A DNA stretch of 64,000 bases. It comes from Escherichia phage JLBYU43. The notes under the pieces are model-generated. The model saw nothing but the letters and a program-made list of their open reading frames with translations, was not told where the DNA came from and did not search any database. The stretch lies in the sequence record NC_105512.1. One strand, given 5' to 3'. The first letter of the stretch is position 1, and each line of letters starts with the position of its first letter. Positions 3,881 to 57,852 of this stretch are shown one piece after another. The position numbers were made by a program, and so were the translations under genes.

Positions 3881-4744
3881 ATGCCGAAAAAATTAACTCA
3901 AGAAGAAGTAGATAAATGCCTAGCCGAACGTGGTTTTACTATGGTGGATAAGCCTTACCAAAATTCTAGGTATAGGCATACGTATCAGTGTGAATATGGT
4001 CATCAATGGACATCTAAATTTGATGCTATTAGGAATGGAAAGACCAATTGTCCTACTTGTTCTATTAATAGCCGTAAACTAGATATCGATAAAATTAATA
4101 CTGTATTACAGGGTAGGGGTATTACATTGTTGGAGGGCTATAAAAATAGTGCCGATATAAATACTAAATTTAGGTGTGTTTGTGGTCATGAGTGGGCTAC
4201 TACACTTAATAGTATAATTAATAGAGGTAGTGGCTGCCCCTCTTGTGCTATTAATAAACAAAAACTTAGTATTAATACTATAAACGATCGTCTTACTGCT
4301 AGGAATATTAGAATAGTAGGTGAATATAGTAATGCGAATATTAAGACCACCTTTCTCTGTGGTGCAGGGCATCAGTGGGAAGCTACTCCAGGATCCGTGT
4401 TAGGAGGAAATGGTTGTCCTTACTGTAAGTATAGGGATTTAGAAAATACTAAGGTATATATTATGCATAGCCCTTCACATGGTGTTAAAATAGGAAGGTC
4501 TAACAATCCAGAGCGCAGACTTTTACATATTAAATCTAGTAGTCACCTTACTGATCTGGAAGTAATTAAAGTATTTGAAATTGGAGAATATAGTGATGCT
4601 GTTCAAATCGAAAAATTAGCTCATAATTACTTTAAAGAACAGAATTGCCAATACAAAGATTTTGATGGTGCTACGGAATTCTTCAATATTGAGCCAGAAG
4701 TAGCTATAAAATTTATCGAGGAAATAATCAATGACAGAAAATGA
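3881..4744 (+). CDS. homing endonuclease-like protein (zinc-finger repeats plus T5orf172/GIY-YIG-like C-terminal domain)
   Basis: three Y-x-C-x-x-GH-x-W...CPxC repeats; C-terminal GVKIGRSNNPERRL...EFF; RBS GGAGAAGGGGA before ATG 3881; paralogs at 52203 and 57019. Confidence 0.6.
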   Translation: MPKKLTQEEVDKCLAERGFTMVDKPYQNSRYRHTYQCEYGHQWTSKFDAIRNGKTNCPTCSINSRKLDIDKINTVLQGRGITLLEGYKNSADINTKFRCVCGHEWATTLNSIINRGSGCPSCAINKQKLSINTINDRLTARNIRIVGEYSNANIKTTFLCGAGHQWEATPGSVLGGNGCPYCKYRDLENTKVYIMHSPSHGVKIGRSNNPERRLLHIKSSSHLTDLEVIKVFEIGEYSDAVQIEKLAHNYFKEQNCQYKDFDGATEFFNIEPEVAIKFIEEIINDRK

Positions 4745-6557
4745 ACTAATTGAAAATTGCAAAGGTTTACTTACTCTAACTGCTGACAAAGACTTGCAGC
4801 ATAATAATGCTAATAAACCTAGCGAGATGTTTCATACACAGAGGGACTTACTAGCTGGAGAAATCAACAAGTATTTAGTAGCACAAGAATTACCTAAACA
4901 TTTATTAGACGCCCATAATCTAGGTAAAATACACATCCATGATATGGATTATAGAGCACAGGGGTACACTAACTGTTGTTTAGTAGACCTAGGTGGTATG
5001 TTGAAAAATGGTACTAAAATTGGTAATGCGAATATTGAAACTCCTAAATCTATAACTACTGCATGTGCGATTACTGCTCAGATTATTGCTCAGGTATCAG
5101 GCGCTCAGTATGGGGGTACTTCTATTGATCGTATTGATGAAGTTCTAGCTCCGTATGTTAGGAAGTCCTACAATAAACATCTGGGGCGTGGCCTACGTTG
5201 GCTTAAGGATGAGAGAAAAGCTGCTGTATATGCTACTGAACTTACTGAAAAAGAATGTTATGATGCATTCCAAGCTCTAGAGTATGAAACTAATTCATTA
5301 TTTAACTCTAATGGGCAGACTCCTTTTATTACGCTGGGCTTTGGATTAGGGCAGGAGTGGGAGGAAAGGATGATTCAGAAAGCCATCCTCCAAAATCGTA
5401 TTAAAGGTTTAGGTGCTGCTGAGTCAACTCCTATCTTCCCTAAACTAGTATTCTCAGTTAAAGAAGGGTTAAATAAAAATCCAGGTGATCCTAACTATGA
5501 TATAAAACAACTAGCACTTGAGTGTTCTGCTACTCGTATGTACCCAGACTATTTAAGTTACGAGAAAGTTGTAGCTGTTACTGGTGATTTTAAAGCCCCT
5601 ATGGGTTGTCGTAGTTTTTTATCTGCCATCCCCTCTGGAGAAATTGCAGGACGTAATAATTTAGGTGTTGTGTCTATCAATCTACCTATGGTTGCTGCTG
5701 AGGCAGATGGAGTTTTTGAAGATTTCTGGGATATTCTAGACAAATATGTGGATGAGGCTTTTGAAGCACATGACTTCTTCTTAAACAGACTGAAGAAAGT
5801 TAAGGCTAAACAAGCCCCTATTCTTTATATGCACGGTGGTTTTGGTGTACGTTTAGAAGGAGAAGAATATGTATGGCCTATTTTTGAGGGTAGATCTTCT
5901 GTATCTCTTGGGTATATTGGGGTCTATGAGATGTGCCAAATAATGTTTAGTTTACCACAGACTCATAGGGACTGTATTGAATTTACAGAGGAAGTTCTCA
6001 CTCACCTAAAAAATCGTTGCGAAGTTAAAGCTACTGAAACTAATCTTGGGTTTAGCTTGTATGCTACTCCTAGTGAGTCTCTGTGTAATCGCTTTAATAA
6101 ACTACTGGAGCGTAGATTCCCAGAGTATTCTTGGTTAGCAGATAAAGGTTATCTTACTAATAGCCATCATTTGGACGTGAGGGAGAAGGTAGCTCCAGAT
6201 ACTAAATTTGAGTATGAGGCTCATTTTACTAAAATAGCTAATGGTGGTAATATATCATTTGTGGAACTACCTCAAATGAAAAAGTTCCACAAAGCTCTTG
6301 AGTATGTGGTGGATAAGGGGCTAGAATGTAGTCATTATATTGGTGTTAATATACCAATTGATGAGTGCTTCAATTGTGGGTATATGGGTGAATCTATTGC
6401 TTCTGAGCGTGGGTTTGTATGTCCAAGTTGTGGGTCTGAAGAAATAGAGGTTACACGTAGGGTTTGCGGGTACCTGGGATCCCCTGGCAGTAGGCCTTTC
6501 AATTCTGGGAAACAAAAAGAAGTTCTTGGTAGAGTAAAACACTTAAATTTCAAGTAA
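4731..6557 (+). CDS. nrdD: anaerobic ribonucleoside-triphosphate reductase (NrdD, class III)
   Basis: glycyl-radical motif RVCGYLG near C-terminus, Cys-rich zinc site CFNCGY...CPSCGS; RBS GAGGAA. Confidence 0.9.
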   Translation: MTENELIENCKGLLTLTADKDLQHNNANKPSEMFHTQRDLLAGEINKYLVAQELPKHLLDAHNLGKIHIHDMDYRAQGYTNCCLVDLGGMLKNGTKIGNANIETPKSITTACAITAQIIAQVSGAQYGGTSIDRIDEVLAPYVRKSYNKHLGRGLRWLKDERKAAVYATELTEKECYDAFQALEYETNSLFNSNGQTPFITLGFGLGQEWEERMIQKAILQNRIKGLGAAESTPIFPKLVFSVKEGLNKNPGDPNYDIKQLALECSATRMYPDYLSYEKVVAVTGDFKAPMGCRSFLSAIPSGEIAGRNNLGVVSINLPMVAAEADGVFEDFWDILDKYVDEAFEAHDFFLNRLKKVKAKQAPILYMHGGFGVRLEGEEYVWPIFEGRSSVSLGYIGVYEMCQIMFSLPQTHRDCIEFTEEVLTHLKNRCEVKATETNLGFSLYATPSESLCNRFNKLLERRFPEYSWLADKGYLTNSHHLDVREKVAPDTKFEYEAHFTKIANGGNISFVELPQMKKFHKALEYVVDKGLECSHYIGVNIPIDECFNCGYMGESIASERGFVCPSCGSEEIEVTRRVCGYLGSPGSRPFNSGKQKEVLGRVKHLNFK

Positions 6558-6564
6558 GCTAATC

Positions 6565-6600
6565 AGCCAGGTTGCTAGTCGACCTGGCTTTTATTTTATT
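6565..6600 (+). terminator. Rho-independent terminator after nrdD
   Basis: stem AGCCAGGT/ACCTGGCT then TTTTATTTTATTT. Confidence 0.7.
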
Positions 6601-6628
6601 TGCTTTCAGCTAAAAATTTATGTATAAT
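6600..6628 (+). promoter_or_regulatory. T5-type early promoter
   Basis: TTGCTT-17-TATAAT followed by AGATTTATAAATTTAAGAGGAGGG box. Confidence 0.7.
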
Positions 6629-6655
6629 AGATTTATAAATTTAAGAGGAGGGTAT

Positions 6656-7015
6656 ATGAAATTAAAACCATTTATTGTTGTATCTAAACTAGGGCATTAT
6701 CACGTAGGAGTAGATACAATTCAGGAAGCTATTTTTGCTGCTACAGGTGATTACTCATTACTAGAAGGTATTGGGTATCCTACACTACTAGGCGACTTCG
6801 TAGAGCAAGAACTAGATATTACTGTCTATAATCCTATATATGAAGAACCTGAATACTTAAAAGAGACTCTAGAATTTGTATATTGGAACCACTTACAAGT
6901 ATTTAATGTTACCTCTAATGGCACAGAGGATTTCTCTTCTGTTATTAAATGCCATATTAAACAAGTTTACTACGATTATTTCTACGAGGATATTGGAGCG
7001 GAGCTAAAAGTATGA
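6656..7015 (+). CDS. hypothetical early protein (119 aa)
   Basis: strong RBS GAGGAGGG; start moved from track 6620. Confidence 0.6.
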   Translation: MKLKPFIVVSKLGHYHVGVDTIQEAIFAATGDYSLLEGIGYPTLLGDFVEQELDITVYNPIYEEPEYLKETLEFVYWNHLQVFNVTSNGTEDFSSVIKCHIKQVYYDYFYEDIGAELKV

Positions 7016-7215
7016 AAAACGTAAAACATCTTAAATATCGCTTAATTTACAACGGACGTATGGAAACAGAAGATCTAGCACAGCTAGCGATCAATTCAGA
7101 TGAAGTTACAGTTCGTGCTTTGTCCATTGAGAAGCTGCGTGCTTCTTACGAAAATCGTATTATGGAATTAGAGGAGAAACTTTATGGCATTCTCGAGTCA
7201 GAAGCTACCAAGTGA
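7012..7215 (+). CDS. hypothetical protein (67 aa)
   Basis: ATGA overlap with upstream stop. Confidence 0.45.
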   Translation: MKNVKHLKYRLIYNGRMETEDLAQLAINSDEVTVRALSIEKLRASYENRIMELEEKLYGILESEATK

Positions 7216-7429
7216 AAATGTTAGTCTTATTGACCTGAGTAAACTCAATGTAGAGTTTCAGGGGGTTTTAATGAAGCACTGGGAAACTGGCTATAAGGAT
7301 GGTGTTGAATCCTGTGCTACTATGCTAGAATTTATTGCTAATACCTTAGTGGAGAAAGGCAATAAAGAATTAGCTGAGCTGTTAGACAGTATTGGGCAAA
7401 ACTTCAGAGAGCAGGTGAAAAATGCGTAG
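7184..7429 (+). CDS. hypothetical protein (81 aa)
   Basis: RBS GAGGAG before ATG 7184. Confidence 0.5.
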   Translation: MAFSSQKLPSENVSLIDLSKLNVEFQGVLMKHWETGYKDGVESCATMLEFIANTLVEKGNKELAELLDSIGQNFREQVKNA

Positions 7430-8198
7430 ACTAATCATTGTTAGTGGTGCTGGTTTAAGTGTTGATAGTGGTATCCGTGCATTCCGTACAGATACTGCTA
7501 GTGGTAAAGCAATGTGGGACGAGTACGATCTAGAAGAGGTGTGTGATATTCATGCTTTTCGTGGCCAGTTCTACTGGAAAACCCACGAGTTCTACAACAA
7601 GCGTCGTCAGGAGTTGCGGACTGTTGAACCTAACATTGCGCACCTTCGTATTGGGGAATGGTTCCAGCGGTATCCAGAAGCGGTACTAAACATTACTACT
7701 AACGTAGATGACTTGCTGGAAAGAGCTGGTGTGCCGAAAAGTGAGGTTCTCCACGTTCATGGCTATTTACCGGAAGTTCGTATTAAGGAATTGCCAGACC
7801 GAAAAGAGTACATCCTAGATGTGGGCTATACTGCTATTGATCCTGATGAATTTTATTGGGCAAAGCCTAACGTTGTATTCTTTGGTGAAGCAGCCCCCGA
7901 ATATGCTCTGATGCATGCCACTTTTGATAGTCTTACAGCTAACGATATGGTTATCGTGGTTGGGTGTAGTAACCAAGTTATCAACTTCAACTGGGAACTT
8001 TTTCCTGCACTAGCTCGTGGTACTAAGATGATGGTTGTTAACCCAACTATTAACTACTTGGAACAATCCCTGTACGAAGAGCGTGGTGTTACTGTATGGC
8101 GTGCTGGGGCTGCCGAAGTTTTCGGTAACAAACACTTTATTGGCCAGGTAGAAGCTTTTATGGAAGGAACTATTTATGCCCCAGAAAAGCATGTGTGA
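7422..8198 (+). CDS. SIR2-family (sirtuin-like) NAD-binding protein lacking a zinc ribbon
   Basis: GAGLSVDSGIRAFR (GAGIS-ESGIP-FR motif), TTNVDDL (TQNID-like), VLHVHG catalytic His, PNVVFFGE; no CxxC pairs; RBS AGGTGA. Confidence 0.75.
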   Translation: MRRLIIVSGAGLSVDSGIRAFRTDTASGKAMWDEYDLEEVCDIHAFRGQFYWKTHEFYNKRRQELRTVEPNIAHLRIGEWFQRYPEAVLNITTNVDDLLERAGVPKSEVLHVHGYLPEVRIKELPDRKEYILDVGYTAIDPDEFYWAKPNVVFFGEAAPEYALMHATFDSLTANDMVIVVGCSNQVINFNWELFPALARGTKMMVVNPTINYLEQSLYEERGVTVWRAGAAEVFGNKHFIGQVEAFMEGTIYAPEKHV

Positions 8199-8215
8199 TC
8201 TTTTAGTATGGCCGG

Positions 8216-8245
8216 ACGGTAGTTGGTGCTACCGTTTCGAATTTG
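8216..8245 (+). terminator. candidate terminator after SIR2 gene
   Basis: stem ACGGTAG/CTACCGT then TTCGAATTT. Confidence 0.4.
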
Positions 8246-8338
8246 CTACCGATGACTTCTCATGGAAAAGTGATGATTTCTGCGTTATCTAAGAGGATAC
8301 AGCAGAATGGAAAGAGTTCCTTATTAAGGAGGGAGAGT

Positions 8339-8524
8339 ATGGTGAAGAAGATTTTTAAGGGTATCTGGAAGGGTCTATTATGGTTTGTCAACCTAATCGG
8401 TATGATTACCATTTATTCTCTGTTCCTATCTGTTATGTGGGGTAAAGGTGAACTGAAGGTTCCAGTTCCTTTTACTGATGAAGTTAAAGTCTGGACGTGG
8501 GATGCTACTGGTGGAAATAAGTAA
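8339..8524 (+). CDS. small membrane protein (61 aa)
   Basis: RBS AAGGAGGGAGAG before ATG 8339; hydrophobic helix LLWFVNLIGMITIYSLFLSVMW. Confidence 0.45.
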   Translation: MVKKIFKGIWKGLLWFVNLIGMITIYSLFLSVMWGKGELKVPVPFTDEVKVWTWDATGGNK

Positions 8525-8714
8525 TACTCCTGTGATTTTCCTGGATATTGATGGGGTGCTCAATTCGAGCATCTCTCACCATCATGCTCGAGATAATGAA
8601 AAGCTGTTCTTTGGCAGTGATTGGGTTTATAAGCCATTACTCCAGGCTTTTCAGAACTTCCTCAAACCTTCTCCAATAATGATTGTTGGGGTATCTTCAT
8701 GGTTTTCTGTATGA
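8502..8714 (+). CDS. HAD-like phosphatase, N-terminal part (motif I), ends at in-frame TGA
   Basis: FLDIDGVL matches HAD/NT5C motif I; start uncertain (ATG 8478/8502 or GTG 8532). Confidence 0.4.
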   Translation: MLLVEISNTPVIFLDIDGVLNSSISHHHARDNEKLFFGSDWVYKPLLQAFQNFLKPSPIMIVGVSSWFSV

Positions 8715-8720
8715 AATGAA

Positions 8721-9017
8721 ATGGAGAACGTTCAGATTATGACCGGACTCGGTTTGATCGATCGTTTTCTTGGTACAACAGATTTTACTGGAGGTGGTTT
8801 ATCTAGGGGTAATTCTGTTTTACGTTTTGTCGAAAAATATAAGCTCAAACATTGGTGTGTGCTGGATGATGCCGGTGCTATGATGTATCAGTATCCAACG
8901 GTTATAGTCAATGGTAGAACTGGGATAAATCTTCAAGATTTAAGAGCTGTTAGCTATATGTTAGAATTTAGTCCAGATCTTGAAATGTGTAAAGCCCTAC
9001 AGCAATTTAAGGTGTAA
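8721..9017 (+). CDS. HAD-like phosphatase, C-terminal part (same frame as 8502-8714)
   Basis: CVLDDAG resembles HAD motif IV; in-frame continuation six nt after TGA 8712-8714. Confidence 0.4.
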   Translation: MENVQIMTGLGLIDRFLGTTDFTGGGLSRGNSVLRFVEKYKLKHWCVLDDAGAMMYQYPTVIVNGRTGINLQDLRAVSYMLEFSPDLEMCKALQQFKV

Positions 9018-9019
9018 AT

Positions 9020-9448
9020 ATGTTTAATAATGTATTCTCTAAAGAAGCTAACCCAATTTTGGTTAACTTTTGGCGTACTCTCCCAGCTAGCCTGTATAAT
9101 GAGGCTATTAACTCTTTGAAAATATGGTGTGAGAATAACGAAATCTCCTTTGCTTTTAAAGATGATATTGATGAGGCCCCTTGTATTGGTTTAATTGTTC
9201 AGGTAGAGGAGGGTCTTGAAGAGATTGTCGGCTGGAAAGAGTTAGATGAAATGGGCTTAGTTTTTGCATTAAATTATAAGCTGTTTATGCCTGCTAAGCA
9301 TCGCCTCGTTGTTAACTATAAAACTAGTGAGTCTCCTGGTTTTCAGGTTAATGAACGTGAGGGCTGGTCATATTCGCCCGAGGAAGTAAATGAAGGGATT
9401 CAGAAACTTCGTCGTTTCGGGTATATGATCCCAGGTTTAACTGCTTAA
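9020..9448 (+). CDS. hypothetical acidic protein, paralog A (142 aa)
   Basis: shares W-x-EL-x-MGL ... PGL pattern with 9458-9853. Confidence 0.55.
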   Translation: MFNNVFSKEANPILVNFWRTLPASLYNEAINSLKIWCENNEISFAFKDDIDEAPCIGLIVQVEEGLEEIVGWKELDEMGLVFALNYKLFMPAKHRLVVNYKTSESPGFQVNEREGWSYSPEEVNEGIQKLRRFGYMIPGLTA

Positions 9449-9457
9449 GGAGGCAGA

Positions 9458-9853
9458 ATGGAACAAGTATTTTGGCGTCAGATAGATCCTAGTTTGGTAG
9501 AGCGTGCTGAGGGGCTCCTTGCACATTGGTTGGGGGTTGACAAGGTTAGTGTAACATTTCCGTTTACTTCTGTAACAGACCCTAGTGTAGGTGTATTTGT
9601 GGACGAAGATGAAGATGATGGTTGGGAAGCTGACTGGAATGAATTGTCCAGCATGGGCTTGATTGTTGCCATCAACTTCTCTATATTCCATCCACGTGGC
9701 TTAGCCATTACACGTGACCCCGAAACTGGTGAATCCCCTTATCTTTTGCAAGTAGAAGATGATATTTGGGAGTACACCGAAGATATTCTCGAAGAAGCTA
9801 AAGGTCAATTAAATCGCATTGGGATCTATGTTCCAGGCCTAAATGATGATTGA
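9458..9853 (+). CDS. hypothetical acidic protein, paralog B (131 aa)
   Basis: RBS GGAGG; paralog of 9020-9448. Confidence 0.6.
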   Translation: MEQVFWRQIDPSLVERAEGLLAHWLGVDKVSVTFPFTSVTDPSVGVFVDEDEDDGWEADWNELSSMGLIVAINFSIFHPRGLAITRDPETGESPYLLQVEDDIWEYTEDILEEAKGQLNRIGIYVPGLNDD

Positions 9854-9876
9854 TTTTCATTAGCCCAATCCTGATT

Positions 9877-9902
9877 ACCGAGTCATTTTGGCTCGGTTTT
9901 CT
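9877..9902 (+). terminator. Rho-independent terminator
   Basis: stem ACCGAG/CTCGGT then TTTTCTCTG. Confidence 0.5.
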
Positions 9903-9944
9903 CTGTGCTCAAAGACACTGATAGCACCTTCGTAAAAAATTTTG

Positions 9945-9973
9945 TTGCACGATGCTCAAAATCTTGGTATAAT
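9945..9973 (+). promoter_or_regulatory. promoter reading into a ~590 bp ORF-free region
   Basis: TTGCAC-17-TATAAT with TG immediately upstream; downstream ATTTATATTGAATTGAGAGAC box. Confidence 0.5.
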
Positions 9974-10566
9974 ATTTATATTGAATTGAGAGACATTAGT
10001 AAAAATTGATTTTGCTAATTTTTCTTAGTGAAGCTGACAATGGATTTACGGCGAGAGTGGTCGATGACCCGTAAATAGCTGCATAAGGTACGTTGCTAGA
10101 GCTTTATGAAAAAGTTTTTCTTGTTTACAATCCGCGATACGGAACAGTTAGGCTGCCCCATTAAGGGTTGTTTTAACTATTACTAGTGTTTATATTGCAT
10201 TAGTTAATCTTCAATTAAGTGATCTGTGTACCCTGAATTCGGAAAGGTAAATCCAAACCGTGCATATTTAGCTCGTTATATAGGCAGAGCTTTATATGGG
10301 GGTGCGAACGAAAAGAGCAGCGAATGGCGGCACGTACAGTAGTCACCTACCAATAGGATAGCGAGGACAAATAGAATCGGCTTAGCGGCCAATGACCTAG
10401 GTTCTATTCTGTATATGAGCGAAGAGAGCACAGCACTGAGATATGATAACTTATTCATATTGTTTGATGATAATTGATGTTTACGTAAATAGTAGTAATA
10501 GTTGTTCTATTCTTTCTGAATAGTCCTAAAGAAAAGATTTCGATTAATCAACACAGGAGTATTGTT
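9974..10566 (+). other. non-coding region: candidate structured RNA, long leader or replication origin
   Basis: no plausible ORF, local GC rise 10270-10440, inverted repeats ATTTACGG/CCGTAAAT and AATAGAA/TTCTATT. Confidence 0.3.
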
Positions 10567-13356
10567 GTGTTTTCTATCCTCCAAGGTCACGCCGGGTTTT
10601 CTCGTGATTTAGCAACAGGTATTTGGCGAGAAATCAAAGCGGAAGATTATACCTTTGCCAAACGATTCTCGAAAGAGCATCCAGAAGGTAAACCAGCTTC
10701 TATGCCCTTCAAATTTGATGTAATAGAAGAGCACGACCCACAAAGCCTTGCTGAAATGTTACCACTTATGAGACGTTTAACGTCTGACCCTCATATCGTT
10801 GTGGTACGAGGTCGATGTCTTGCACCTAAAAATAATGTGCGACGTAAGAAAGGTAACTTTAATGTATCCAACCCTAGCAATATTATTGCTATGGACGTGG
10901 ATGGTATCCTGGATACCGGTGGGTACGACAAGTTTAATCTTGTAGGTATGGCCCGTCACATTATTAAGATGTTGAATAGTATTAGTGAGGACATGTTTCC
11001 TCTTGATGCAGGGTTTATTGCTCATGCATCGTCTTCGGCTGGCCTAAAACCAGGTATCCGAATGCACTTAATGCTAGAATCTAACGTCAAGGTAACTCAA
11101 GGTCAGTTAAAGTTCTTATTTACGTCTATCAATGATAGTAGTAAGCAAAAATTCGGTTTTGATATTGCCGACTTAGCTTATTATTCATCTGTCCAGCTTC
11201 ACTATTTTGCCGACCCTTTATTTAGCGATGGTATTGTTGATCCGTTTAAAGCGGAGAGTAAGCCACGTCTGGTGTATGTTAAAGGTTCGAAAGTAAATTT
11301 GCCTAATAATCTGGTTGACTATGAAACAACTAGAGGGGAGTTTAAGGAAGAGTTTTATTCTTTACTTGATCAAATTAAAGGCAAAAAGATTGCTTCTGAT
11401 AAAGTAGAAGAAACCATCAGCGAATTGGAAGAAGCTGAGGATGGGGTGTACTTGCGTATTATCCCCAAACTATACCATAGAGCATTAGAGGATGGTGTTG
11501 ATTTCGCATGGCTAGAACGTGAGATTAAACCCGCTTTATCTGAATATATTGCAACTAAAGATAACAGTCGTAATATTCAAGATTACTTTAATAACGGTCG
11601 TAAGCAGGCTCTCAAAGCGTTTGTTAATAATTCTAAACGCGAGATTCCATTAAATCTGAAAGGTGTTCCTCTTAAGAAATTAGAAGTGGATTCTCCACCA
11701 GAAGTTCCATACCTGAAGATTAACATTGTGCCCCCAAAAGGGCATATAACATTTGTTAAGGCAAGTCTTGGTACTGGCAAAACTACGGCAGTAACTAAAT
11801 GGCTGGACGCAGGTGTTCTTCCTGGCAACTTTTTAGCAGTTACAAATACTAGAGCGCTGGTATCTTCAAACGCTAAGAAATTTAGCGCAGGACAATATGA
11901 TAAGTCTGTAGATATGCTCAACTTTAAACGTGGAGCTATTGATCGTATGTCCACAACTATTCACTCTTTGCATAAGTTCAAGAGTTTTATTGGTCAAATT
12001 GATGCAATCTTTATCGATGAATGTGATGCTGTAATGAATGACCTATTATTCGCCCCGGTTGTTAAACAGCGTCGTGAATGTATTCAAGTTCTACGTGACA
12101 TCCTCATGACAGCTAAAACTGTAATTCTATCAGATGGTGATATTAGTGCCGAAACTATTGAAGCATATGGTTCTCTAATTGATTTTGATAAACCAGTAGC
12201 ATTTTATAATCATCACCGTAAAATGCTGTCAAAAGCTCATGCTTATGAGTTCCCTGACGAATCCAGTATTTGGGTTGCACTTCAAACATCTCTAGAGATG
12301 GGTGAGAAGTCAATCCTAGTATCTGACTGTGGACCTGATGAATTAAATGAAAAGGGAATGGCATTACGTCGTAATACCGGTGCGTTAGTTAAAGAAATTC
12401 ACTCAAACTCTACGTCTGATGTAGATATCCGACGTATTCTGGATTATACAACTAATGAGCTAATTGATCAACAGATTGATTGTTTGTTATGTAGTCCATC
12501 TGTAACGAGTGGTGTTGACTTTAACTATTTTGATAACGTATTCGTAATCACTAGAACCTCAAACCAAGCGCCAAACATGCGTTTCCAAGCAATCAGGCGC
12601 GACCGTGGTGCTCAGAACATTTATTATTTTATTGATAAATCTACGAGTGGATTTTCTGCAGGTTCCGAGCAATATAATATTGACGAGGGTTGGATTGAGT
12701 TAGCCCAACAACTGTACGCACGTCGTCGTGAGCTGGAATCTAGAAACTATACCAGTACTTTGCGTTATTATCTTCTCGATCAAGGTGCAACTATTGATAT
12801 CTTCAGTGAAAGCTGGGGGACTATCGAAGGTGCAGGCAAAGAGTATACAGAAGAGCGAATCAAAGCCATTTTGTATTCAACTCCTGATTATTGTGCTCCA
12901 CGCCATGCAGATGCGTATGAAGCTAAACTACTTCTTGTTCGCTATTATCATCTTGAGTCTATTAAAGATGTAACAGTTGAGCATGTTGAGCAATATATCA
13001 AGGATAAACCTAATGATCGAGCTGCATTCTTCCATAAAATGCACGAGATGTTCTGGGAAGATATTAAGAAGTGTTCAAATGTCACTATCAAACCATTCAT
13101 AGAAGCTCTGAAAGGTAAGAAGAAAGATTTCTTCCTTAAAACAGGTCAGAGTGCTAACCCAAAATACGCCAGAATGTATCTTGGTATGATGGGTATTGGT
13201 AAGGATATGAACACGGAGAATATTGTAGACTGGTACAGAACCTATTGTAAAATCGAATGTATGCCAATCCCGTATAAGTTTATGACTGATGAGGAGAAAC
13301 ATATGCATGATGAAGCAATGGCAGAGCTAGGCGCTAGAAATGACAGTGAAGAATAA
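10567..13356 (+). CDS. large replication ATPase/helicase (929 aa), possible N-terminal primase-polymerase-like domain
   Basis: GTG start with RBS ACAGGAG; Walker A SLGTGKTT, Walker B IFIDECD; N-terminal IIAMDVDG and SSAG...HLML motifs. Confidence 0.55.
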   Translation: MFSILQGHAGFSRDLATGIWREIKAEDYTFAKRFSKEHPEGKPASMPFKFDVIEEHDPQSLAEMLPLMRRLTSDPHIVVVRGRCLAPKNNVRRKKGNFNVSNPSNIIAMDVDGILDTGGYDKFNLVGMARHIIKMLNSISEDMFPLDAGFIAHASSSAGLKPGIRMHLMLESNVKVTQGQLKFLFTSINDSSKQKFGFDIADLAYYSSVQLHYFADPLFSDGIVDPFKAESKPRLVYVKGSKVNLPNNLVDYETTRGEFKEEFYSLLDQIKGKKIASDKVEETISELEEAEDGVYLRIIPKLYHRALEDGVDFAWLEREIKPALSEYIATKDNSRNIQDYFNNGRKQALKAFVNNSKREIPLNLKGVPLKKLEVDSPPEVPYLKINIVPPKGHITFVKASLGTGKTTAVTKWLDAGVLPGNFLAVTNTRALVSSNAKKFSAGQYDKSVDMLNFKRGAIDRMSTTIHSLHKFKSFIGQIDAIFIDECDAVMNDLLFAPVVKQRRECIQVLRDILMTAKTVILSDGDISAETIEAYGSLIDFDKPVAFYNHHRKMLSKAHAYEFPDESSIWVALQTSLEMGEKSILVSDCGPDELNEKGMALRRNTGALVKEIHSNSTSDVDIRRILDYTTNELIDQQIDCLLCSPSVTSGVDFNYFDNVFVITRTSNQAPNMRFQAIRRDRGAQNIYYFIDKSTSGFSAGSEQYNIDEGWIELAQQLYARRRELESRNYTSTLRYYLLDQGATIDIFSESWGTIEGAGKEYTEERIKAILYSTPDYCAPRHADAYEAKLLLVRYYHLESIKDVTVEHVEQYIKDKPNDRAAFFHKMHEMFWEDIKKCSNVTIKPFIEALKGKKKDFFLKTGQSANPKYARMYLGMMGIGKDMNTENIVDWYRTYCKIECMPIPYKFMTDEEKHMHDEAMAELGARNDSEE

Positions 13357-13573
13357 AAAATGGGAAACAAGGAAGTTTCCAGTAAAAGAGCGTAAAGTTC
13401 CTGTTTACGACACTTCGGAAAAGCTATGTAGGGTGGTACCACACAGATTAGCTGGCATCCCTAACATATCCGAGTGGTTACTTAAACAACGGAAAACTAA
13501 CGTGTCTCTTCGCATCGGCTTTGAGTTAGATAAAGTCTATGCTGAACTTGCTTCTTTGCTCAAGGAACAATAA
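13340..13573 (+). CDS. hypothetical small protein (77 aa)
   Basis: ORF only, weak RBS, overlaps neighbours. Confidence 0.3.
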   Translation: MTVKNKKWETRKFPVKERKVPVYDTSEKLCRVVPHRLAGIPNISEWLLKQRKTNVSLRIGFELDKVYAELASLLKEQ

Positions 13574-14145
13574 TGTTTATAAGAATTCCCGAATTTCCTG
13601 ACTATGCAGTGAATGAAAATGGAGATGTATACTCTTTTCTCTCCAACAAATTTCTTGCTCCAGGTCAAAATACTGCGGGGTACTTACAAGTTAACTTAAT
13701 GAAAGATGGCTCCCCTATAAATGTGAGAGTGCATAGGCTAGTGGCTTATTGTTTTGGTCTACTTCCTGAGTTAGAATCAGAGTTGGTAGTAGACCATATA
13801 AATGATAATAAGTTAGATCCTAGATTAGTTAACCTACAGGTATTAACCCACAAAGCTAATGCAATAAAATTCCATAATAAAAACTGGAGAGAACATCCAG
13901 ATTTCTTAGCAGAGATTAAGAAATTAGAAAGTATGGGTATAACTAAAGCAGCTGCATCTTATAGGTGTAGGGCTATGTTTAAATATAATGTGGTTATTCC
14001 TTCCGGTGATACTCTAACCTTAGAGTTAATAGAATCTACATATCAGAAAACCAATTCTTGGAGAAAAACCGCGAGAGTACTTGGATTTAAAAGCGCTCCT
14101 GCCATTCTTTATAGATATAACAAGCTGAAAGCAGCTTCTTTATAA
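13573..14145 (+). CDS. HNH homing endonuclease (NUMOD4/HNH_3-like)
   Basis: HRLVA...VVDHINDNKLDPRLVNLQVLTHKAN; TAATG overlap. Confidence 0.7.
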   Translation: MFIRIPEFPDYAVNENGDVYSFLSNKFLAPGQNTAGYLQVNLMKDGSPINVRVHRLVAYCFGLLPELESELVVDHINDNKLDPRLVNLQVLTHKANAIKFHNKNWREHPDFLAEIKKLESMGITKAAASYRCRAMFKYNVVIPSGDTLTLELIESTYQKTNSWRKTARVLGFKSAPAILYRYNKLKAASL

Positions 14146-16441: not shown

Positions 16442-17413
16442 ATGACTAATGTAAAAGACTTTATTAAACGTTGCCAAGAAGCGTATTACCAGGGAATGTC
16501 TTTAATCTCTGACGAAGAATATGATCGTCTGATTAAAAGATTTCCGTTAGAAGAAGAGATCGGGCCTAAGGGCGATATTCCACATCTGTATCGTATGTAT
16601 TCTTTACAGAAAGTTTACTTTGATCGTGGTGATAAAGCTCCGTTTACTACCCTTGATGATGTAGAAACTGATAAGTTAGATGGTTGTGCAATTTCTCTAC
16701 TGTATATCGACGGAACGTTTGTTCAAGCATTAACTCGTGGTAATGGTATTCTAGGAAATGATGTCACAAGCAACGTTAGATTGCTGAACATCCCGAAAAA
16801 GATTTCCCAAAAAGTACCAACTCAAATCACTGGTGAAGTTCTTATCACTAAAGAAGTAGAAAACAAACGTAACTACGCTTCCGGTGCTATTAACTTAAAA
16901 GAAGAAGATGACTTCATCGAACGTATTGCAGAAGGTGGCTTGATTTTTGTAGCGTACGGTATTCAGTGTTCAGAGGATTCTGTAGGTATTACAGGTTCTT
17001 ACTTAGATGATATGTCTTGGTTGGCTAACGAAGATTTTATCACTGTAATGAACATTAAAAACTACTTTAATTGGTATCCAACGGATGGTAAAGTAGTTCG
17101 TATTAATGACAACAACAAATTCTTCCGTGAAGGTTGGACAAATAAACATCCTCGTGGTGCTTATGCAATCAAACAAGATGAAGAAGGCGAAATTACAACT
17201 CTTCTCAAAGTTGAATGGCAGGTAGGGGCTTCTGGTAAAGTAACTCCAGTTGGTTATTTCGAACCGGTAATTATTGATGATGCTACAATTGTTAAGGCGA
17301 CTCTTAATAACGTTGATTATATTAACTCTCTTGATCTAGAGATCGGTTGCCAGATTCGAGTAATTCGTGCTGGTGGTGTAATCCCGTGTATAGTAGAGCG
17401 AGTATACGATTAA
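16442..17413 (+). CDS. NAD-dependent DNA ligase, N-terminal subunit (adenylation + OB domains)
   Basis: KLDG active-site lysine motif, TRGNG...G-DVT. Confidence 0.8.
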   Translation: MTNVKDFIKRCQEAYYQGMSLISDEEYDRLIKRFPLEEEIGPKGDIPHLYRMYSLQKVYFDRGDKAPFTTLDDVETDKLDGCAISLLYIDGTFVQALTRGNGILGNDVTSNVRLLNIPKKISQKVPTQITGEVLITKEVENKRNYASGAINLKEEDDFIERIAEGGLIFVAYGIQCSEDSVGITGSYLDDMSWLANEDFITVMNIKNYFNWYPTDGKVVRINDNNKFFREGWTNKHPRGAYAIKQDEEGEITTLLKVEWQVGASGKVTPVGYFEPVIIDDATIVKATLNNVDYINSLDLEIGCQIRVIRAGGVIPCIVERVYD

Positions 17414-17585: not shown

Positions 17586-17615
17586 ATTTATATAAATTGA
17601 TAAGGAAGAAATTTG

Positions 17616-18395
17616 ATGAAAATCGAAATTCCAACACAATGTCCCTCTTGTGGTTCTAAGCTAGATCTTGTCAACGGACAATTATTCTGTCGGAATAAGT
17701 CCAACTGTCCAGCGCAATCAAGTAAGTTAATTGAGAACTTCTGTACAAAAATGAAGTTAAAGGGCTTTGGTCCAAAAACTATTGAGAAGCTGGAGCTGAC
17801 GAAGATTTCAGAACTATTTTACCTAACCGAAGAAGATTTGGTTAGAGCCGTGGGTAGCAAGGTTGCCGCTAAGTTAATTAGCGAATTAAATACTAAAGTT
17901 CGCGGAGACATTGACTTTGGTTCAGTTCTCGGTTCTTTAGGAATCCCTCTAATCGGAGAGGTTGCAGCAAAGAAATTATCCCAAAATTGCACTAGCTTCC
18001 ACGATGTGAAGGCTGACGGCAAGGCTGGAGAAAATTATAAAGCCTGGCTAAATTCCCCACAAGGCAAGGATGTTATCGAATTACCGTGGAAATTTTCAAC
18101 TGGTATTAGGGGCACTAAAGCTAATATCATCATTACAGATGAATTAGTTGCCCAGCCAAATGGAATCGCGGTATGTATTACCGGATCTTTGCAAGATTTT
18201 GCAAATCGAACGGATGCAACAAACTATTTAGAAAGTCTAGGGTATACGGTTAAGAAATCAGTTACTAAAGACGTCAAATACCTAATCTGTGAGGATGAAT
18301 CAAAACGTTCTTCCTCATCTTATAAGAAAGCCGAAACGAATGGGATAGAAATCCTGTCGATTAAAGAACTATTGGAGAAAAATAATAATGTCTAA
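17616..18395 (+). CDS. NAD-dependent DNA ligase, C-terminal subunit (Zn finger, HhH, BRCT)
   Basis: four-Cys zinc finger CPSCGS...CRNKSNC, BRCT-like IAVCITGSL; RBS AGGAAG. Confidence 0.75.
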   Translation: MKIEIPTQCPSCGSKLDLVNGQLFCRNKSNCPAQSSKLIENFCTKMKLKGFGPKTIEKLELTKISELFYLTEEDLVRAVGSKVAAKLISELNTKVRGDIDFGSVLGSLGIPLIGEVAAKKLSQNCTSFHDVKADGKAGENYKAWLNSPQGKDVIELPWKFSTGIRGTKANIIITDELVAQPNGIAVCITGSLQDFANRTDATNYLESLGYTVKKSVTKDVKYLICEDESKRSSSSYKKAETNGIEILSIKELLEKNNNV

Positions 18396-52859: not shown

Positions 52860-54236
52860 TTAAGATGCAGCGTAAGCACCAGATACAACGCCGTTTTCGA
52901 AGTAACGTTGCAGGTTAACACGCTGGGTAACGTAGTATGCGTCACGCTGTTTGCCAGCTTGGCGCTCACGTTCAACAGTAACGGCACGCTGACGCGGCAT
53001 TACAAAGTTATCTTTATAAACAATAACTGCGAATTCAGCGGAAGCAGCTTTAGCTGGGAAGTACTCAGAAACTACAACCGGCAGACCGTAAATACGACCA
53101 ACCTGACCCTGCAGTTTAACAGCATCGTTACCAACCTGGGCAACATCCTGCCATTCTTCATCTTCCAGCAGATCGTAGTAAGCATCCATAGATACGATCA
53201 GTACCAGTTTGCTCAGTTTCAGACCGTGACGGCCCAGTTTACGACGCAGCTTGGAGATAGTCTTAGCAGTTACCAGAACAGAACCGTCAGCTTTAGCTTC
53301 GGTAACAACCTTAGCACCATCATCAGCAGCCAGTTTCAGCAGACCCTTAGGCTGACCAGTACCATTACCGGACATGAAAGCTTCTTCGATAGAAACAGCG
53401 TGTGCTTCGATCAGACGCTTACGCAGCAGAGGCAGCAGGGAGAAGATTGCATCTTCTTCAGTTTCATCAGTGATGAAGGATTTAGCAGCCAGCTTGTAAG
53501 TTTTGAAGCTGATTTCAGTCAGTTGACCTTTAACTTCGTCACCAACAGTTTCGTCAGTACCGAATTTGGAAGCATCTACCCAAGTAGCACGACCAGCTTC
53601 TGGTTCAACGAGCATAGTAAGGATTTTGCTGGACATTGGCAGTTCATCGAACAGTGCACCAACTACCAGTTCCTTCTGCAGGTCACGGATAATACGGGTA
53701 GAGAAGATAGTTTCGTATGCTTCGCTAGACATGGAAACGGAAGAAGAACCGTTAACAGCTTTAACGTGAGCCTTACCATGTTCAGTTTCAAATACGTCCT
53801 TCTCCATCATATAAGACAGAAGAACCAGTTTTTCAACTTCATCTTCAAAAGCTTCCTGAGTACCATACAGTGCTTTAGCTACGCTATCACCGACGAAGGA
53901 ACGTCCTTCACGAGCTGCCAGCAGAGATTTGATTTCGTCCTGAAGACCAACAATAGTTTCCTGCTGTTTTTCTACAGTCTGTGCAAACAGTTCTGCGCTC
54001 TTCTTAGATTTTTCATCCAGGGATTTAACCAGTTCCAGAGCTTCTTCTAGCTTCTGACGATCTTCGCCAACTGCTTTAGAAACCAGATCATTCATACGAG
54101 CCAGTTCTTTTTCTTCCTGCTCTTTACGCATACGTTCAGCTTCAGCAGCTTTCTGAGCAGCGGTAAGACCTTCCAGAGATTTAGCCAGATCACCCAGACC
54201 AAGTTCTTCTTTCAGCTTATTAATATCAATAGTCAT
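52860..54236 (-). CDS. major capsid protein precursor (HK97 fold, pb8-like, 458 aa)
   Basis: N-terminal coiled-coil scaffold-like segment, HK97-like core; optimal codons. Confidence 0.9.
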   Translation of the reverse strand: MTIDINKLKEELGLGDLAKSLEGLTAAQKAAEAERMRKEQEEKELARMNDLVSKAVGEDRQKLEEALELVKSLDEKSKKSAELFAQTVEKQQETIVGLQDEIKSLLAAREGRSFVGDSVAKALYGTQEAFEDEVEKLVLLSYMMEKDVFETEHGKAHVKAVNGSSSVSMSSEAYETIFSTRIIRDLQKELVVGALFDELPMSSKILTMLVEPEAGRATWVDASKFGTDETVGDEVKGQLTEISFKTYKLAAKSFITDETEEDAIFSLLPLLRKRLIEAHAVSIEEAFMSGNGTGQPKGLLKLAADDGAKVVTEAKADGSVLVTAKTISKLRRKLGRHGLKLSKLVLIVSMDAYYDLLEDEEWQDVAQVGNDAVKLQGQVGRIYGLPVVVSEYFPAKAASAEFAVIVYKDNFVMPRQRAVTVERERQAGKQRDAYYVTQRVNLQRYFENGVVSGAYAAS

Positions 54237-54253
54237 TTTTAAATAATTCTCCG

Positions 54254-54886
54254 TTATTCTTTAACGTAGCCTAAAGCTATCGCAAGTTTTTCTAGTTCAG
54301 AAAGATTACGTTCTTGAGCTGGGACAGCTTTAGAACTTATTGCAGTAAAAGATTTACGCCATTCAGTATAATCATGACCATTCATACTCTTAGCGAGGTT
54401 GAATGTTGAGTCCTGATTACAAGGTACAGAAACTACCGAAACTTCGTATAGTTCTAAATCTTTAATAATAAATATATCAGTAGCTTCATCCCACTCTGCA
54501 TCTAGGCAGCGGAATCCGATACTAAAAGTTTTCAGTACACCGTTTTTAATTAGTGAAAAGATAGCCGGATCAGAACTTTCATAGATCTCGCATTCGATTT
54601 CGAGACCCATTTCAGTAGGGTTAAGATCAATACACTTGCCGATTGGACGACGATGGTCGTGTCCGAAAAGAATAATCGGGTTTTTCATGTAGTTAGCAAG
54701 TGCATTAGATGTTTTCCATGCCGAAGCAGGAATTACATCACCAGCGCGATCTTTACTAATTGTATTAGCGAATCCACGGATTTTTACAACACCCTCTTTG
54801 GATTCGCTATCAATAGATTTAATATAAGCATCTAAATGAACCGGTGCTGATTTTAACTTGTTATAGTCAATAGCAGCTTGTGTCAT
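54254..54886 (-). CDS. prohead protease (pb11-like, 210 aa)
   Basis: HK97-family protease pattern with GHDH. Confidence 0.8.
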   Translation of the reverse strand: MTQAAIDYNKLKSAPVHLDAYIKSIDSESKEGVVKIRGFANTISKDRAGDVIPASAWKTSNALANYMKNPIILFGHDHRRPIGKCIDLNPTEMGLEIECEIYESSDPAIFSLIKNGVLKTFSIGFRCLDAEWDEATDIFIIKDLELYEVSVVSVPCNQDSTFNLAKSMNGHDYTEWRKSFTAISSKAVPAQERNLSELEKLAIALGYVKE

Positions 54887-54889
54887 TTA

Positions 54890-55378
54890 TTAGCCTCCAA
54901 CACCAGGTGCAGTTGGGGTAGCTTTTACTGCTGCAGACTTAGTAGATTCTCCCGCCCCATTAACAGCTACTGCCTGGAAAGTATACTCTTTTGCTTCTAG
55001 GGTAGAAATAGTACCTGTTTTAGAAGACCCAGAATTATGGGTTTTTGGAGTAGTTCCATCAGTATAGTATACTTTATACTGGGTGATTGGTGAGCCGGTA
55101 TTAGTACCATCAGTAATTGTATAAGTTACTGAGTTTTCACCCGGAGTTACCTGCAACGTAGGGGCTCCAGGGACAACGTCTACTGGACCAGCCTTACCAT
55201 AAGCCTCTACAAATTTCTTCCATACTTTGCGGTTAGTATGCGCAGATGAAAGTCCCAATTCTCTACGCAGAAAAGCATAGCTAGGAACATATTTATGCGC
55301 AGCAACCGTAGCAAAGAAGATATGAGATTCTGGCAGTTTTTCACCAAAAATGGTCTTTAGACCACTATAATCAATCAT
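54890..55378 (-). CDS. head decoration protein (pb10-like)
   Basis: C-terminal Ig/FN3-like Thr/Gly-rich domain. Confidence 0.55.
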   Translation of the reverse strand: MIDYSGLKTIFGEKLPESHIFFATVAAHKYVPSYAFLRRELGLSSAHTNRKVWKKFVEAYGKAGPVDVVPGAPTLQVTPGENSVTYTITDGTNTGSPITQYKVYYTDGTTPKTHNSGSSKTGTISTLEAKEYTFQAVAVNGAGESTKSAAVKATPTAPGVGG

Positions 55379-56592
55379 TCTTTATCTCCCTCGGTGGAAC
55401 CTTGAGGTCTACCACCTTCTTGACCAGATACGCCTGTTGCAGAACCAGCAACGTTAGCAGGAATACGAATCTTATTCATCTGCTCATCATCTAAAGGTTC
55501 AAGGTTCAGCTCTAAACGAGCTTCGTTACCAGTTATAATACCATTATTAACCAATGAGGTTAAATGTTTAGCCTCAGATTCTTTATCTGGTGTTAATGCA
55601 GCTACTTCCTTAGTATTAGGAGTAATCTTATAACCAAAAAAGAAAGTAAGAGAACTAGTCAGTTTGTTCAGCATAGGGATGATAGTCATATAATAGAACA
55701 GTTCGATGTTTGGTCGAATGTTCGCATTATTACCCCCATCAAGTAGCACCTGCGGAACACCAAAGGCTAGACAGATAGATTTATTAAATCCTTCGATGTC
55801 TTCCTTAAAGTCTAGATCTTTAAAAGAGGATATTTGGGAGTACGGTTTAGCTTTCATACCACCATCTAGAATCAGGACAGAGGACTGACCAGTACTAGGA
55901 TTATAATCTAGTTGTAATTCTTCTTGTTTACGCTCACGCAATTTCTTGTTCAGGATTTCATCCGTCTCAAGAATAAGACCAATCACGGTTCCGTTATCTA
56001 GGAACTTCTCTTTAAAGTTAAGCATCTTAGAACGCTTCTCCAGAGAATCAATAACAGTAGCAACACGAGATTGTCCAGAAATTTGAGAATTTGTGCCGCA
56101 CACGTAACTGTTATCCTTTATAAAGATAATCTCATCTACGCGATAGTCTATCTGATTATTAAATATAAATTTTTTGATAAACTTATTGGCATCTGCCTCT
56201 ACTTGCATTAATGCAGCAGGGACATGGTAAAGTGCTGTGCCATCCCAATAGATGTATGCACAACCTTCAAAAAGTAGGTCAGTGACTACAAGTCTACGGA
56301 ATGTGCTTATATCCATGAATGGATTAGGTCGTACATTTAAGAGAGTGTCTAGAGTCTTTGCCTTGACGCCGTTAGCGTACGTGACAATATTATATTTATC
56401 TCCGACAGTATAAGAACACTCCGCCGCACTATCTATAACCATATTAGCAGTTCTATTGAGAATCTCAATTTTACTGTAGGCTTGTCCAGTGGTAAAAGGC
56501 TTACGGTTAGTGCGATGACTAACTGGTTCCATGTCTCTTATAATACGTTGACCCGGATTTAGCTTTTCAGTAATCCAGCTTTTAAAACCCAT
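55375..56592 (-). CDS. portal protein (pb7-like, 405 aa)
   Basis: size and position between terminase and protease. Confidence 0.8.
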   Translation of the reverse strand: MGFKSWITEKLNPGQRIIRDMEPVSHRTNRKPFTTGQAYSKIEILNRTANMVIDSAAECSYTVGDKYNIVTYANGVKAKTLDTLLNVRPNPFMDISTFRRLVVTDLLFEGCAYIYWDGTALYHVPAALMQVEADANKFIKKFIFNNQIDYRVDEIIFIKDNSYVCGTNSQISGQSRVATVIDSLEKRSKMLNFKEKFLDNGTVIGLILETDEILNKKLRERKQEELQLDYNPSTGQSSVLILDGGMKAKPYSQISSFKDLDFKEDIEGFNKSICLAFGVPQVLLDGGNNANIRPNIELFYYMTIIPMLNKLTSSLTFFFGYKITPNTKEVAALTPDKESEAKHLTSLVNNGIITGNEARLELNLEPLDDEQMNKIRIPANVAGSATGVSGQEGGRPQGSTEGDKE

Positions 56593-57826: not shown

Positions 57827-57852
57827 TGGGATACCAACTGAGTAGTATCCCA
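57827..57852 (-). terminator. hairpin downstream of terminase gene
   Basis: 8-bp stem TGGGATAC/GTATCCCA; weak U-tract. Confidence 0.3.

Follow-up and report, generated by a model that had tools for sequence, protein, structure and literature searches.

A zinc-less sirtuin of Escherichia phage JLBYU43: an apparently active phage enzyme with a possible part in RNA-end repair

What a virulent phage does with a sirtuin that has lost its zinc site is the question raised by a Sir2-like gene of Escherichia phage JLBYU43 (sequence record NC_105512.1). The gene lies in a stretch of 64,000 nucleotides that was analysed whole and is called the window below (coordinates in Table 1). Its product is apparently a catalytically competent sirtuin that consumes nicotinamide adenine dinucleotide (NAD+), as judged from the residues it has kept. 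The reading placed first, tentatively, is that it performs an NAD+-dependent step of phage RNA-end (tRNA) repair or phosphate clean-up by Tpt1-like removal of phosphate from RNA. The evidence set out below supports this weakly, and a CobB-like lysine deacylase is nearly as likely; a role as a general deacetylase or NADase is less likely than one in an RNA-end repair module.

The product was matched to the Pfam family SIR2 (PF02146; E 1.1e-23, 84.5 bits, cut-off 24) over residues 9-186, aligned with profile positions 1-178 of 180, that is, with the whole catalytic core. It was also matched to PHROG 2162 (E 1.6e-105), and because of these two values the family assignment stands far above chance. 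The copy in phage T5, T5.102, is 61% identical and occupies the equivalent slot in the equivalent operon; by sequence, the JLBYU43 gene is its ortholog and a member of the PHROG 2162 clade. Relatives were retrieved by tblastn from 999 phage records (T5-like, rV5-like, PVP-SE1-like and Phapecoctavirus-like phages and jumbo phages), and PF02146 was present in the best 120 of 232 close database homologues, whose contig sizes and few recorded source names suggest a phage origin. No clade member was found when 185,579 genomes of bacteria and archaea, each representing a species, were scanned by clade-specific peptide patterns only. All NCBIfam deacylase and CobB models (NF040867, NF001753 and related models) scored below cut-off, the best at 109.1 against 243 bits. 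Judged by these comparisons, the clade is restricted to phages and is a side branch of class III, the CobB/SIRT5 group, and the JLBYU43 protein is CobB-like without being a CobB equivalog.

Conservation was assessed in 38 phage homologues (58-82% identity) and in a wider set of the 146 nearest 50%-identity cluster representatives (P0064, P0119, P0121-P0268); CobB numbering was calibrated on the mutant names of PDB matches (A76G, Y92A, I131C). The GAGxS Rossmann motif (G9-A10-G11-x-S13) aligned with that of CobB, and G9, A10, G11, S16, G17, F21 and R22 were invariant in 38/38 homologues. N94, D96 and H113 were equally invariant, H113 being matched in the alignment to the catalytic His of CobB from E. 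coli, and the HG dipeptide was present in 146/146 representatives. Y58 and R61, the counterparts of the Tyr/Arg pair by which CobB and SIRT5 bind the acyl carboxylate, were invariant in the 38 homologues, and a Y..R pair was found in 109 of the 146 representatives. The AlphaFold2 model had a sirtuin fold, with a mean predicted local distance difference test score (pLDDT) of 88.7 and a predicted template-modelling score (pTM) of 0.86. With a confident model, and with no variation across the clade in any NAD-binding or catalytic residue, the enzyme looks active.

The zinc site is gone. The protein has two cysteines, C41 and C182, both outside the zinc module, and the segment between the catalytic His and the FGE motif (residues 114-148) contains neither Cys nor His, so that both the CxxC pairs and any alternative metal site are absent. 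A Cys pair occurred in the equivalent segment of 0/38 homologues, and the loss is thus clade-wide. In the model this block was predicted at pLDDT 90-95, with hairpin strands at residues 114-122 and 130-133; G135 of the hairpin was invariant and Y136 at least 90% conserved among the 38 homologues. Because the module persists as a Cys-free beta-hairpin, zinc loss is best read as a structural simplification and not as a switch to the defence-type SIR2 fold. The (I/V)GY motif of the hairpin was present in zinc-containing relatives too and therefore marks a wider subfamily that extends beyond the zinc-less clade. Among the 146 representatives, Thr stood at the Gln position of TQNID in 27 proteins without Cys and in 11 with at least three Cys, and Gln in 8 and 83, respectively; the Thr93-type residue and Cys loss were associated (Fisher's exact p = 2e-12, not corrected for phylogeny). 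Intermediates of both kinds suggest that the Gln-to-Thr change and Cys loss are separable and that the zinc-less form was reached stepwise. The initial annotation, which had described a phage SIR2-family protein with sirtuin motifs and no CxxC pairs, was borne out as a whole in these observations: the ORF (open reading frame), every motif that it quoted and the zinc-less state were all recovered, and the catalytic His survived alignment with CobB.

A catalytically dead or destabilised relic, inactivated by zinc loss and left with a structural or binding role only, would agree with the view that canonical sirtuins require zinc to keep their small domain intact (PMC8556138), and neighbouring genes in JLBYU43 do carry nonsense codons. 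Such a relic is nevertheless very improbable, given an intact ORF, catalytic residues that are invariant across about 1000 phage records of many lineages, and a zinc-less hairpin predicted with high confidence. The zinc-less state is old and widespread, which argues for purifying selection on a working enzyme.

Structural comparison yielded figures of 22.6 for Sir2Af1, 19.6 for PfSir2A, about 18 for SIRT4, SIRT2 and SIRT1, 15.2 for SirTM, 12-13 for KomC, 12.0 for ThsA, 11-12 for SIR2-HerA and 9-10 for Avs5. The protein has the Tyr-x-x-Arg pair of class III and its closest structural neighbours are class III enzymes; the modelled structure groups it with class III deacylases, away from NADase or ADP-ribosyltransferase sirtuins. 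In a Pfam scan of the protein at E <= 1, PF02146 alone was matched and PF13289 (SIR2_2) was not, and no PADLOC defence model was matched at E <= 1. KomC belongs to the PF13289 family, and ThsA and DSR presumably belong to it as well. The defence-type SIR2 proteins (ThsA, DSR1/2, SIR2-HerA, KomC, Avs5) have in common with the phage protein an NAD-binding Sir2-type Rossmann core, and their SIR2 domains also lack the Cys4 zinc site. They are, however, fused or coupled to sensor or effector partners, whereas the phage protein stands alone at 258 residues, comes from a virulent phage and matches neither PF13289 nor the PADLOC models.

The interpretation given in the initial annotation therefore stood in part. 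An active-site-intact, zinc-less SIR2 protein encoded in an early-region unit, with a ligase gene about 8 kb downstream, was upheld; the step from the zinc-less state to an NADase or ADP-ribosyltransferase type failed, since only PF02146 was matched, and comparison with ThsA/DSR-type SIR2 domains and SirTM placed the protein with class III deacylases instead. SirTM, an ADP-ribosylating sirtuin named there for comparison, shows the opposite pattern: it keeps its zinc domain, has QG in place of HG and sits in an operon with a macrodomain, GcvH-L and LplA2 (PMC4518038), and the phage protein has none of these hallmarks. Stable mono-ADP-ribosylation of some host protein or nucleic acid is accordingly named here as an unlikely function to which HG in place of QG, loss of the zinc domain and the lack of a macrodomain, GcvH-L or LplA2 neighbour are all opposed, even though sirtuin chemistry permits ADP-ribosyl transfer (with SirTM as precedent; PMC4518038), Iyer et al. 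count phage sirtuins as ADP-ribosyltransferases in the broad sense (PMC9503650) and the change of Gln to Thr93 alters a ribose contact.

A CobB-like NAD+-dependent lysine deacylase of desuccinylase/demalonylase flavour, acting on host or phage proteins early in infection, is a serious though still doubtful alternative. The protein shares with E. coli CobB, Sir2Af1 and SIRT5 the GAGxS motif, the Asn and Asp of QNID (N94/D96), the catalytic HG, the FGE loop, the Tyr/Arg pair (Y58/R61) and the hydrophobic pocket residues. It differs from these class III enzymes, to which it is ~26-31% identical, in having an invariant Thr93 for the ribose-contacting Gln of TQNID (TQN to TTN), in losing the Pro of the peptide-binding VYP strand (now VIN) and in lacking the structural Cys4 zinc site. 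Further against a deacylase stand the NCBIfam scores, all far under cut-off, and the clade's absence (0/185,579) from the bacterial and archaeal genomes as scanned by peptide pattern. No acyltransferase or acyl-metabolism gene is found nearby, and the recurrent neighbours are enzymes that process phosphates or cyclic phosphates, not macrodomains or esterases. Frequent ligase neighbours (ATP-dependent DNA ligase and Rnl1, counted below) and the NAD-dependent ligase 8 kb off in JLBYU43 would suit a speculative variant in which, by analogy with CobB and Acs, ligases and other adenylate-forming enzymes would have their catalytic lysine kept free by the deacylase.

Deacylation is also the standing database annotation: T5.102 has been labelled 'Sir2 (NAD-dependent deacetylase)' since publication of the T5 genome in 2005. 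It is likewise the reading of Skliros et al. 2016, who described Sir2/CobB of the Vibrio phages phiSt2, phiGrn1 and KVP40 as lacking the zinc ligand and keeping the catalytic His, named T5 as a further carrier and modelled the Vibrio phage protein as an Acs-activating deacetylase (PMC5107563). Those proteins resemble the JLBYU43 protein in being CobB-like, without the zinc ligand and with the catalytic His and FGE loop; they differ in belonging to schizoT4-like myoviruses and in having been discussed with NAD+ salvage genes (PMC5107563).

The RNA-phosphate reading is drawn chiefly from the genes that accompany the clade. In rV5-like phages, RNA_lig_T4_1, cREC and Sir2 genes are immediate neighbours in a row, and genes for an AAA_33 kinase and a metallophosphatase are divergently transcribed. 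In Serratia jumbo phage BF (L004, KY630187 53758-61446) the order begins with NMNAT/Nudix, NAMPT, a 2H/Acb1-like gene, a zinc-binding protein and Sir2, and continues with a Nudt16-like Nudix-cREC fusion, one unknown gene and PIN-PhoH, some unannotated genes being interspersed. In T5-like phages the corresponding neighbour is a HAD_SAK_2 phosphatase gene, so that three unrelated lineages have differing RNA-end or cyclic-phosphate enzymes beside Sir2. For a census of neighbours, 26 lineage representatives were drawn from 27 clusters at 75% Sir2 identity, and the ORFs lying up to 2.6 kb to either side of Sir2 were classified. Rnl1 was found in 5/26, a PNK-like kinase in 5/26, a metallophosphatase in 4-5/26, an ATP-dependent DNA ligase in 6-7/26, HAD_SAK_2 in 3/26, cREC in 3/26, NAMPT in 2/26 and a CCA-adding-type enzyme in 1/26. 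No macrodomain was among the neighbour families listed in this census, nor was one found by Pfam and PHROG among the eight neighbouring proteins of the JLBYU43 unit (orthologues from phage MSP1 standing in for the two stop-bearing genes).

A macrodomain is expected where O-acyl-ADP-ribose or protein-linked ADP-ribose is turned over. Because neighbours that act on phosphate or cyclic-phosphate ends, together with the lack of macrodomains, fit a phosphorylated ADP-ribose product better than O-acyl-ADP-ribose, the RNA-phosphate reading was ranked first. The invariant Y58/R61 pair, the departures from the deacylase pattern and the sub-cut-off NCBIfam scores were counted in its support.

A reading of this kind is already in print. 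Iyer, Burroughs, Anantharaman & Aravind 2022 (section 3.7.3) described a distinct phage sirtuin clade with RNA-repair neighbours, proposed for it a KptA/Tpt1-like removal of RNA 2'-phosphates and assigned T5-like phage SP15 to the type with a Swiss-army-knife HAD phosphatase (PMC9503650). Their type 1 and type 2 neighbourhoods were re-verified here. The JLBYU43 protein is a member of that clade, with the 'type 3' neighbourhood and its Swiss-army-knife HAD phosphatase, and shows no essential difference from it except that the HAD partner of JLBYU43 has a premature TGA. In the full-text literature on phage sirtuins, computational treatments alone were found (PMC5107563, PMC9503650); the Kongming and NARP3 (PMC13464706) papers treat Sir2 as a host defence effector only. 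The gene, the absence of the zinc ligand and the RNA-repair hypothesis are thus already in the literature, and the window adds little that is new.

From the family, catalytic residues, zinc loss and neighbourhoods observed, we infer the following substrate, reaction and roles for partner genes. A phosphate monoester of damaged RNA, for example a 2'-PO4, would be held in the Tyr58/Arg61 anion site and would attack C1'' of NAD+, with nicotinamide leaving. The ribose 2''-OH, activated by His113, would then attack phosphorus. The products would be RNA with a free 2'-OH and ADP-ribose 1'',2''-cyclic phosphate, so that a sirtuin scaffold would here perform the reaction of Tpt1/KptA. HAD_SAK_2 would either prepare the RNA end or degrade the phosphorylated ADP-ribose by-product, and in other phages cREC, 2H, Nudix or metallophosphatase proteins would take its place.

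The parallel with Tpt1 is one of chemistry: in sirtuins and Tpt1 alike an oxygen nucleophile attacks C1'' of NAD+, nicotinamide leaves and the ribose 2''-OH then attacks the acyl or phosphoryl centre. The reaction proposed as common to both is NAD+ + RNA 2'-PO4 -> nicotinamide + ADP-ribose 1'',2''-cyclic phosphate, and Tpt1/KptA and the phage sirtuins are both associated with RNA ligase and cyclic-phosphate enzymes. The folds are unrelated: KptA is classed as a domain of the ADP-ribosyltransferase (ART) superfamily (PMC9503650), whereas the phage protein is a Rossmann-type sirtuin and would be a functional analogue at most. That the clade is the first sirtuin of nucleic acids, a Tpt1 analogue that removes 2'- or other terminal phosphates from nuclease-damaged tRNA or RNA with the Tyr/Arg pair re-used as phosphate site, is possible and is put forward with reserve.

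Several observations weigh against the RNA-phosphate reading. The nearest relatives by sequence and by structure are all lysine deacylases. The hydrophobic acyl-lysine tunnel of CobB is conservatively kept, with C41, V95 and F154 in the places of A76, I131 and F190 (the F190 numbering is quoted in PMC5107563), and from these residues the tunnel appears better fitted to a lysine side chain than to an RNA backbone. The phage protein is acidic, with an isoelectric point of 5.2. Tpt1-type RNA enzymes, in contrast, are basic. In 8/26 lineages, all Phapecoctavirus-like, no recognisable RNA-repair neighbour was found, and by Pfam the neighbourhood of that type contained DUF7275 and DUF7277 only. The HAD gene is missing from some T5-like phages, and in JLBYU43 it is interrupted while Sir2 is intact. 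Homologues of Rnl1, PNK-like kinase, cREC, 2H and Nudix proteins were not found in the 64-kb window, in T5 1-50,000 or in T5 53,500-60,000; since T5-like phages lack a detectable Rnl1, sealing would need a host ligase. The functions of cREC and HAD_SAK are themselves computational predictions (PMC9503650), no sirtuin is known to have RNA as its substrate, and in the full-text literature no experiment on a member of the clade was found.

The BF block can equally be read as an anti-defence island, and it bears on a further alternative, in which the protein is an enzyme of the NAD pool: a free NAD+ glycohydrolase, or a user or destroyer of NAD-derived immune signals, working beside NAD+ salvage genes. 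In BF the Sir2 gene lies 1-4 kb from the NMNAT/Nudix and NAMPT genes and adjoins the Acb1-like 2H gene. We take the NMNAT/Nudix and NAMPT genes to be an NAD+ salvage pair of NARP2 type. NAMPT recurs in the two census lineages noted above, the NARP3 module for NAD+ regeneration is known from T5-like phages (PMC13464706), and the Sir2 alleles of these phages are mosaic and divergent, at 60% identity where many flanking genes reach about 90-95%. Set against this are the complete deacylase-type active site, substrate pocket included, and the same mosaic pattern in nrdD, which makes the divergence unspecific to Sir2. Draining NAD+ would also harm the phage itself, which relies on an NAD-dependent DNA ligase. 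An NAD-pool function is accordingly rated improbable. Modification of host proteins or manipulation of NAD pools, both suggested in the initial annotation, are possible and found no specific support here; an unregulated NADase is unlikely in a phage dependent on an NAD-dependent ligase.

Two terminator-like hairpins enclose the JLBYU43 Sir2 gene within what is, as had been proposed from the sequence, an early-region transcription unit of T5 type. In the T5 record the unit of T5.102 is likewise framed, by a promoter that follows the terminator of nrdD and by a terminator downstream of T5.107; a promoter scan of the Sir2 unit in the window gave nothing above background, although the T5 record annotates a promoter at the equivalent place. 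The PHROG 5827 ORF directly precedes Sir2 in about half of the T5-like loci. HAD_SAK_2 is three genes downstream of Sir2 within the same terminator-bounded unit, and its intact ortholog from MSP1 matched PF18143 (E 8.5e-19). The in-frame TGA of the window copy is CGA in relatives, and it splits a conserved gene of 168 residues into 8478..8714 and 8721..9017, an ATG lying 6 nt past the stop. The gene was intact in 30/30 other T5-like loci that carry it; in a few further records it is truncated or in two pieces (SHSML-45, MET_P1-88). A second nonsense codon at 8290-8292 (TAT in relatives, here TAA) cuts a conserved 60-residue ORF of PHROG 5116, which starts at 8176 and overlaps the 3' end of Sir2, to 38 residues. 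For two nonsense codons only 420 bp or less apart, immediately 3' of a Sir2 gene that is itself intact, relaxed selection, passage in the laboratory and errors of sequencing are all conceivable causes.

Table 1. Positions in the window of the Sir2-like gene, its motifs and the surrounding features
Feature	Position	Strand	Remarks
Sir2-like gene, T5.102 ortholog	7422..8198	+	ATG start, 258 residues
GAGLSVDSGIRAFR, Rossmann NAD-binding motif and cofactor-binding loop, residues 9-22	7446..7487	+	Aligns with CobB GAGISAESGIRTFR
Y58-N-K-R61, class III Tyr/Arg pair	7593..7604	+	Aligns with CobB FYNARR; Y58 = CobB Y92, R61 = CobB R95
TTNVDDL, residues 92-98	7695..7715	+	TQNID counterpart; N94 and D96 kept, Gln replaced by invariant Thr93
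His113-Gly114, catalytic	7758..7763	+	Aligned with CobB HG
Zinc-module remnant, predicted Cys-free beta-hairpin, residues 114-147	7761..7862	+	(D/N)(V/I)GY motif at residues 133-136
PNVVFFGE, FGE substrate-binding loop, residues 149-156	7866..7889	+	F154 = CobB F190
G181-C-S183...V186-I187-N188-F189	7962..7988	+	Counterpart of CobB GTS...V219-Y220-P221, with V186-I187-N188 for V219-Y220-P221; Pro lost
Terminator-like hairpin after nrdD	6565..6589	+	Upstream unit boundary; terminator and promoter annotated there in T5
ORF without assigned function	6620..7015		First in the Sir2 unit
ORF without assigned function	7012..7215		Second in the Sir2 unit
ORF of 81 residues, PHROG 5827	7184..7429	+	Optional small partner; stop overlaps Sir2 start by 8 nt
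Two small ORFs	about 8176..8524		Between Sir2 and HAD_SAK_2
HAD_SAK_2 phosphatase gene, T5.105 ortholog	8511..9017	+	In-frame TGA at 8712-8714
DUF7415 paralogues, T5.106/T5.107 orthologs	9020..9448, 9458..9853	+	PF24187 E 5e-36, 8e-28
Terminator-like hairpin after second DUF7415 gene	9877..9897	+	Downstream unit boundary; T5 terminator annotated likewise
Split NAD-dependent DNA ligase	16442..17413, 17613..18395		About 8 kb downstream of Sir2

The NAD-dependent ligase that the initial annotation had noted in the same early block was found there, split into two genes, with its A subunit matched to PDB 9hu3 (E 6e-102). Adenylation and OB domains are carried by one of the genes, and direct reading of the translation gave a Cys4-type zinc-finger motif in the other, the rest of which is taken to be the HhH and BRCT part. 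T5-like phages typically have such a two-gene NAD-dependent ligase. In the 64-kb window ARAGORN found no tRNA genes, and no Rfam family was matched at gathering threshold, which places the large T5-type tRNA cluster outside it.

The T5-like (Demerecviridae) genome is mosaic at this locus, since the Sir2 gene is 100% identical to that of Salmonella phage vB_SabS_Sds2 (T5-like) and the 870 bp that follow (8150-9020) are only 94% identical to the best record; Sir2 is also 99.9% identical to the genes of several other phages. In 4731-13356, nrdD, Sir2 and the two DUF7415 genes fall into discrete alleles, with protein identities of 57-76% against 96-100%, and at least three divergent Sir2 alleles, that of JLBYU43 among them, circulate in T5-like phages. 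Several flanking genes (orf67, HAD, primase) are about 85-99% identical. Local GC content peaks in Sir2 and in the second DUF7415 gene (0.43-0.46 against about 0.35-0.40). Fast evolution of Sir2 as the signal of an arms race was considered and rejected, since nrdD and the DUF7415 genes share the discrete mosaic alleles.

Several further features of the locus and its relatives were recorded. The HAD_SAK_2 gene T5.105 (NC_005859 57588-58094) is mis-annotated 'Sir2 (NAD-dependent deacetylase)', as it is in many RefSeq T5-like records, and PHROG 18062, which bears the same Sir2 name, corresponds to the C-terminal 92 residues of the HAD protein (E 2.6e-54); one record labels the HAD_SAK_2 gene 'putative RNA repair protein'. 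The DUF7415 tandem pair always lies 3' of the HAD gene in T5-like phages and is present also where HAD is lacking, and the T5 record describes T5.105 and T5.107 as similar to ORFs 303 and 299 of Aeromonas phage Aeh1. Between the primase gene and the next replication gene, an ORF of 190 residues (13573-14145) has an HNH-like motif (VDHINDNKL...N...H) by direct reading of the translation; a homing endonuclease is annotated just after the primase in MSP1, and none is annotated there in TrudiGerster. Three long relatives of the Sir2 protein (P0137, P0203, P0226) are fusions: a tandem Sir2-Sir2 protein of 521 residues, a Sir2 protein with WG beta-repeats of 528 residues and a Sir2 protein with a LEM-3-like GIY-YIG nuclease of 509 residues. 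As clues to function these fusions were uninformative, the GIY-YIG case probably being one of homing-endonuclease adjacency.

The gene is carried by about a thousand sequenced virulent phages under a database label, 'NAD-dependent deacetylase', that was derived purely from homology. As a CobB-like deacylase, if that is what it is, the protein would let phages rewrite the acylation of host proteins. If it is Tpt1-like, sirtuin chemistry would extend to RNA and phages would have an NAD-dependent arm against tRNA-cleaving immunity; T5-like and many large virulent phages would thereby gain an NAD-dependent counter to RNA-cleaving defences.

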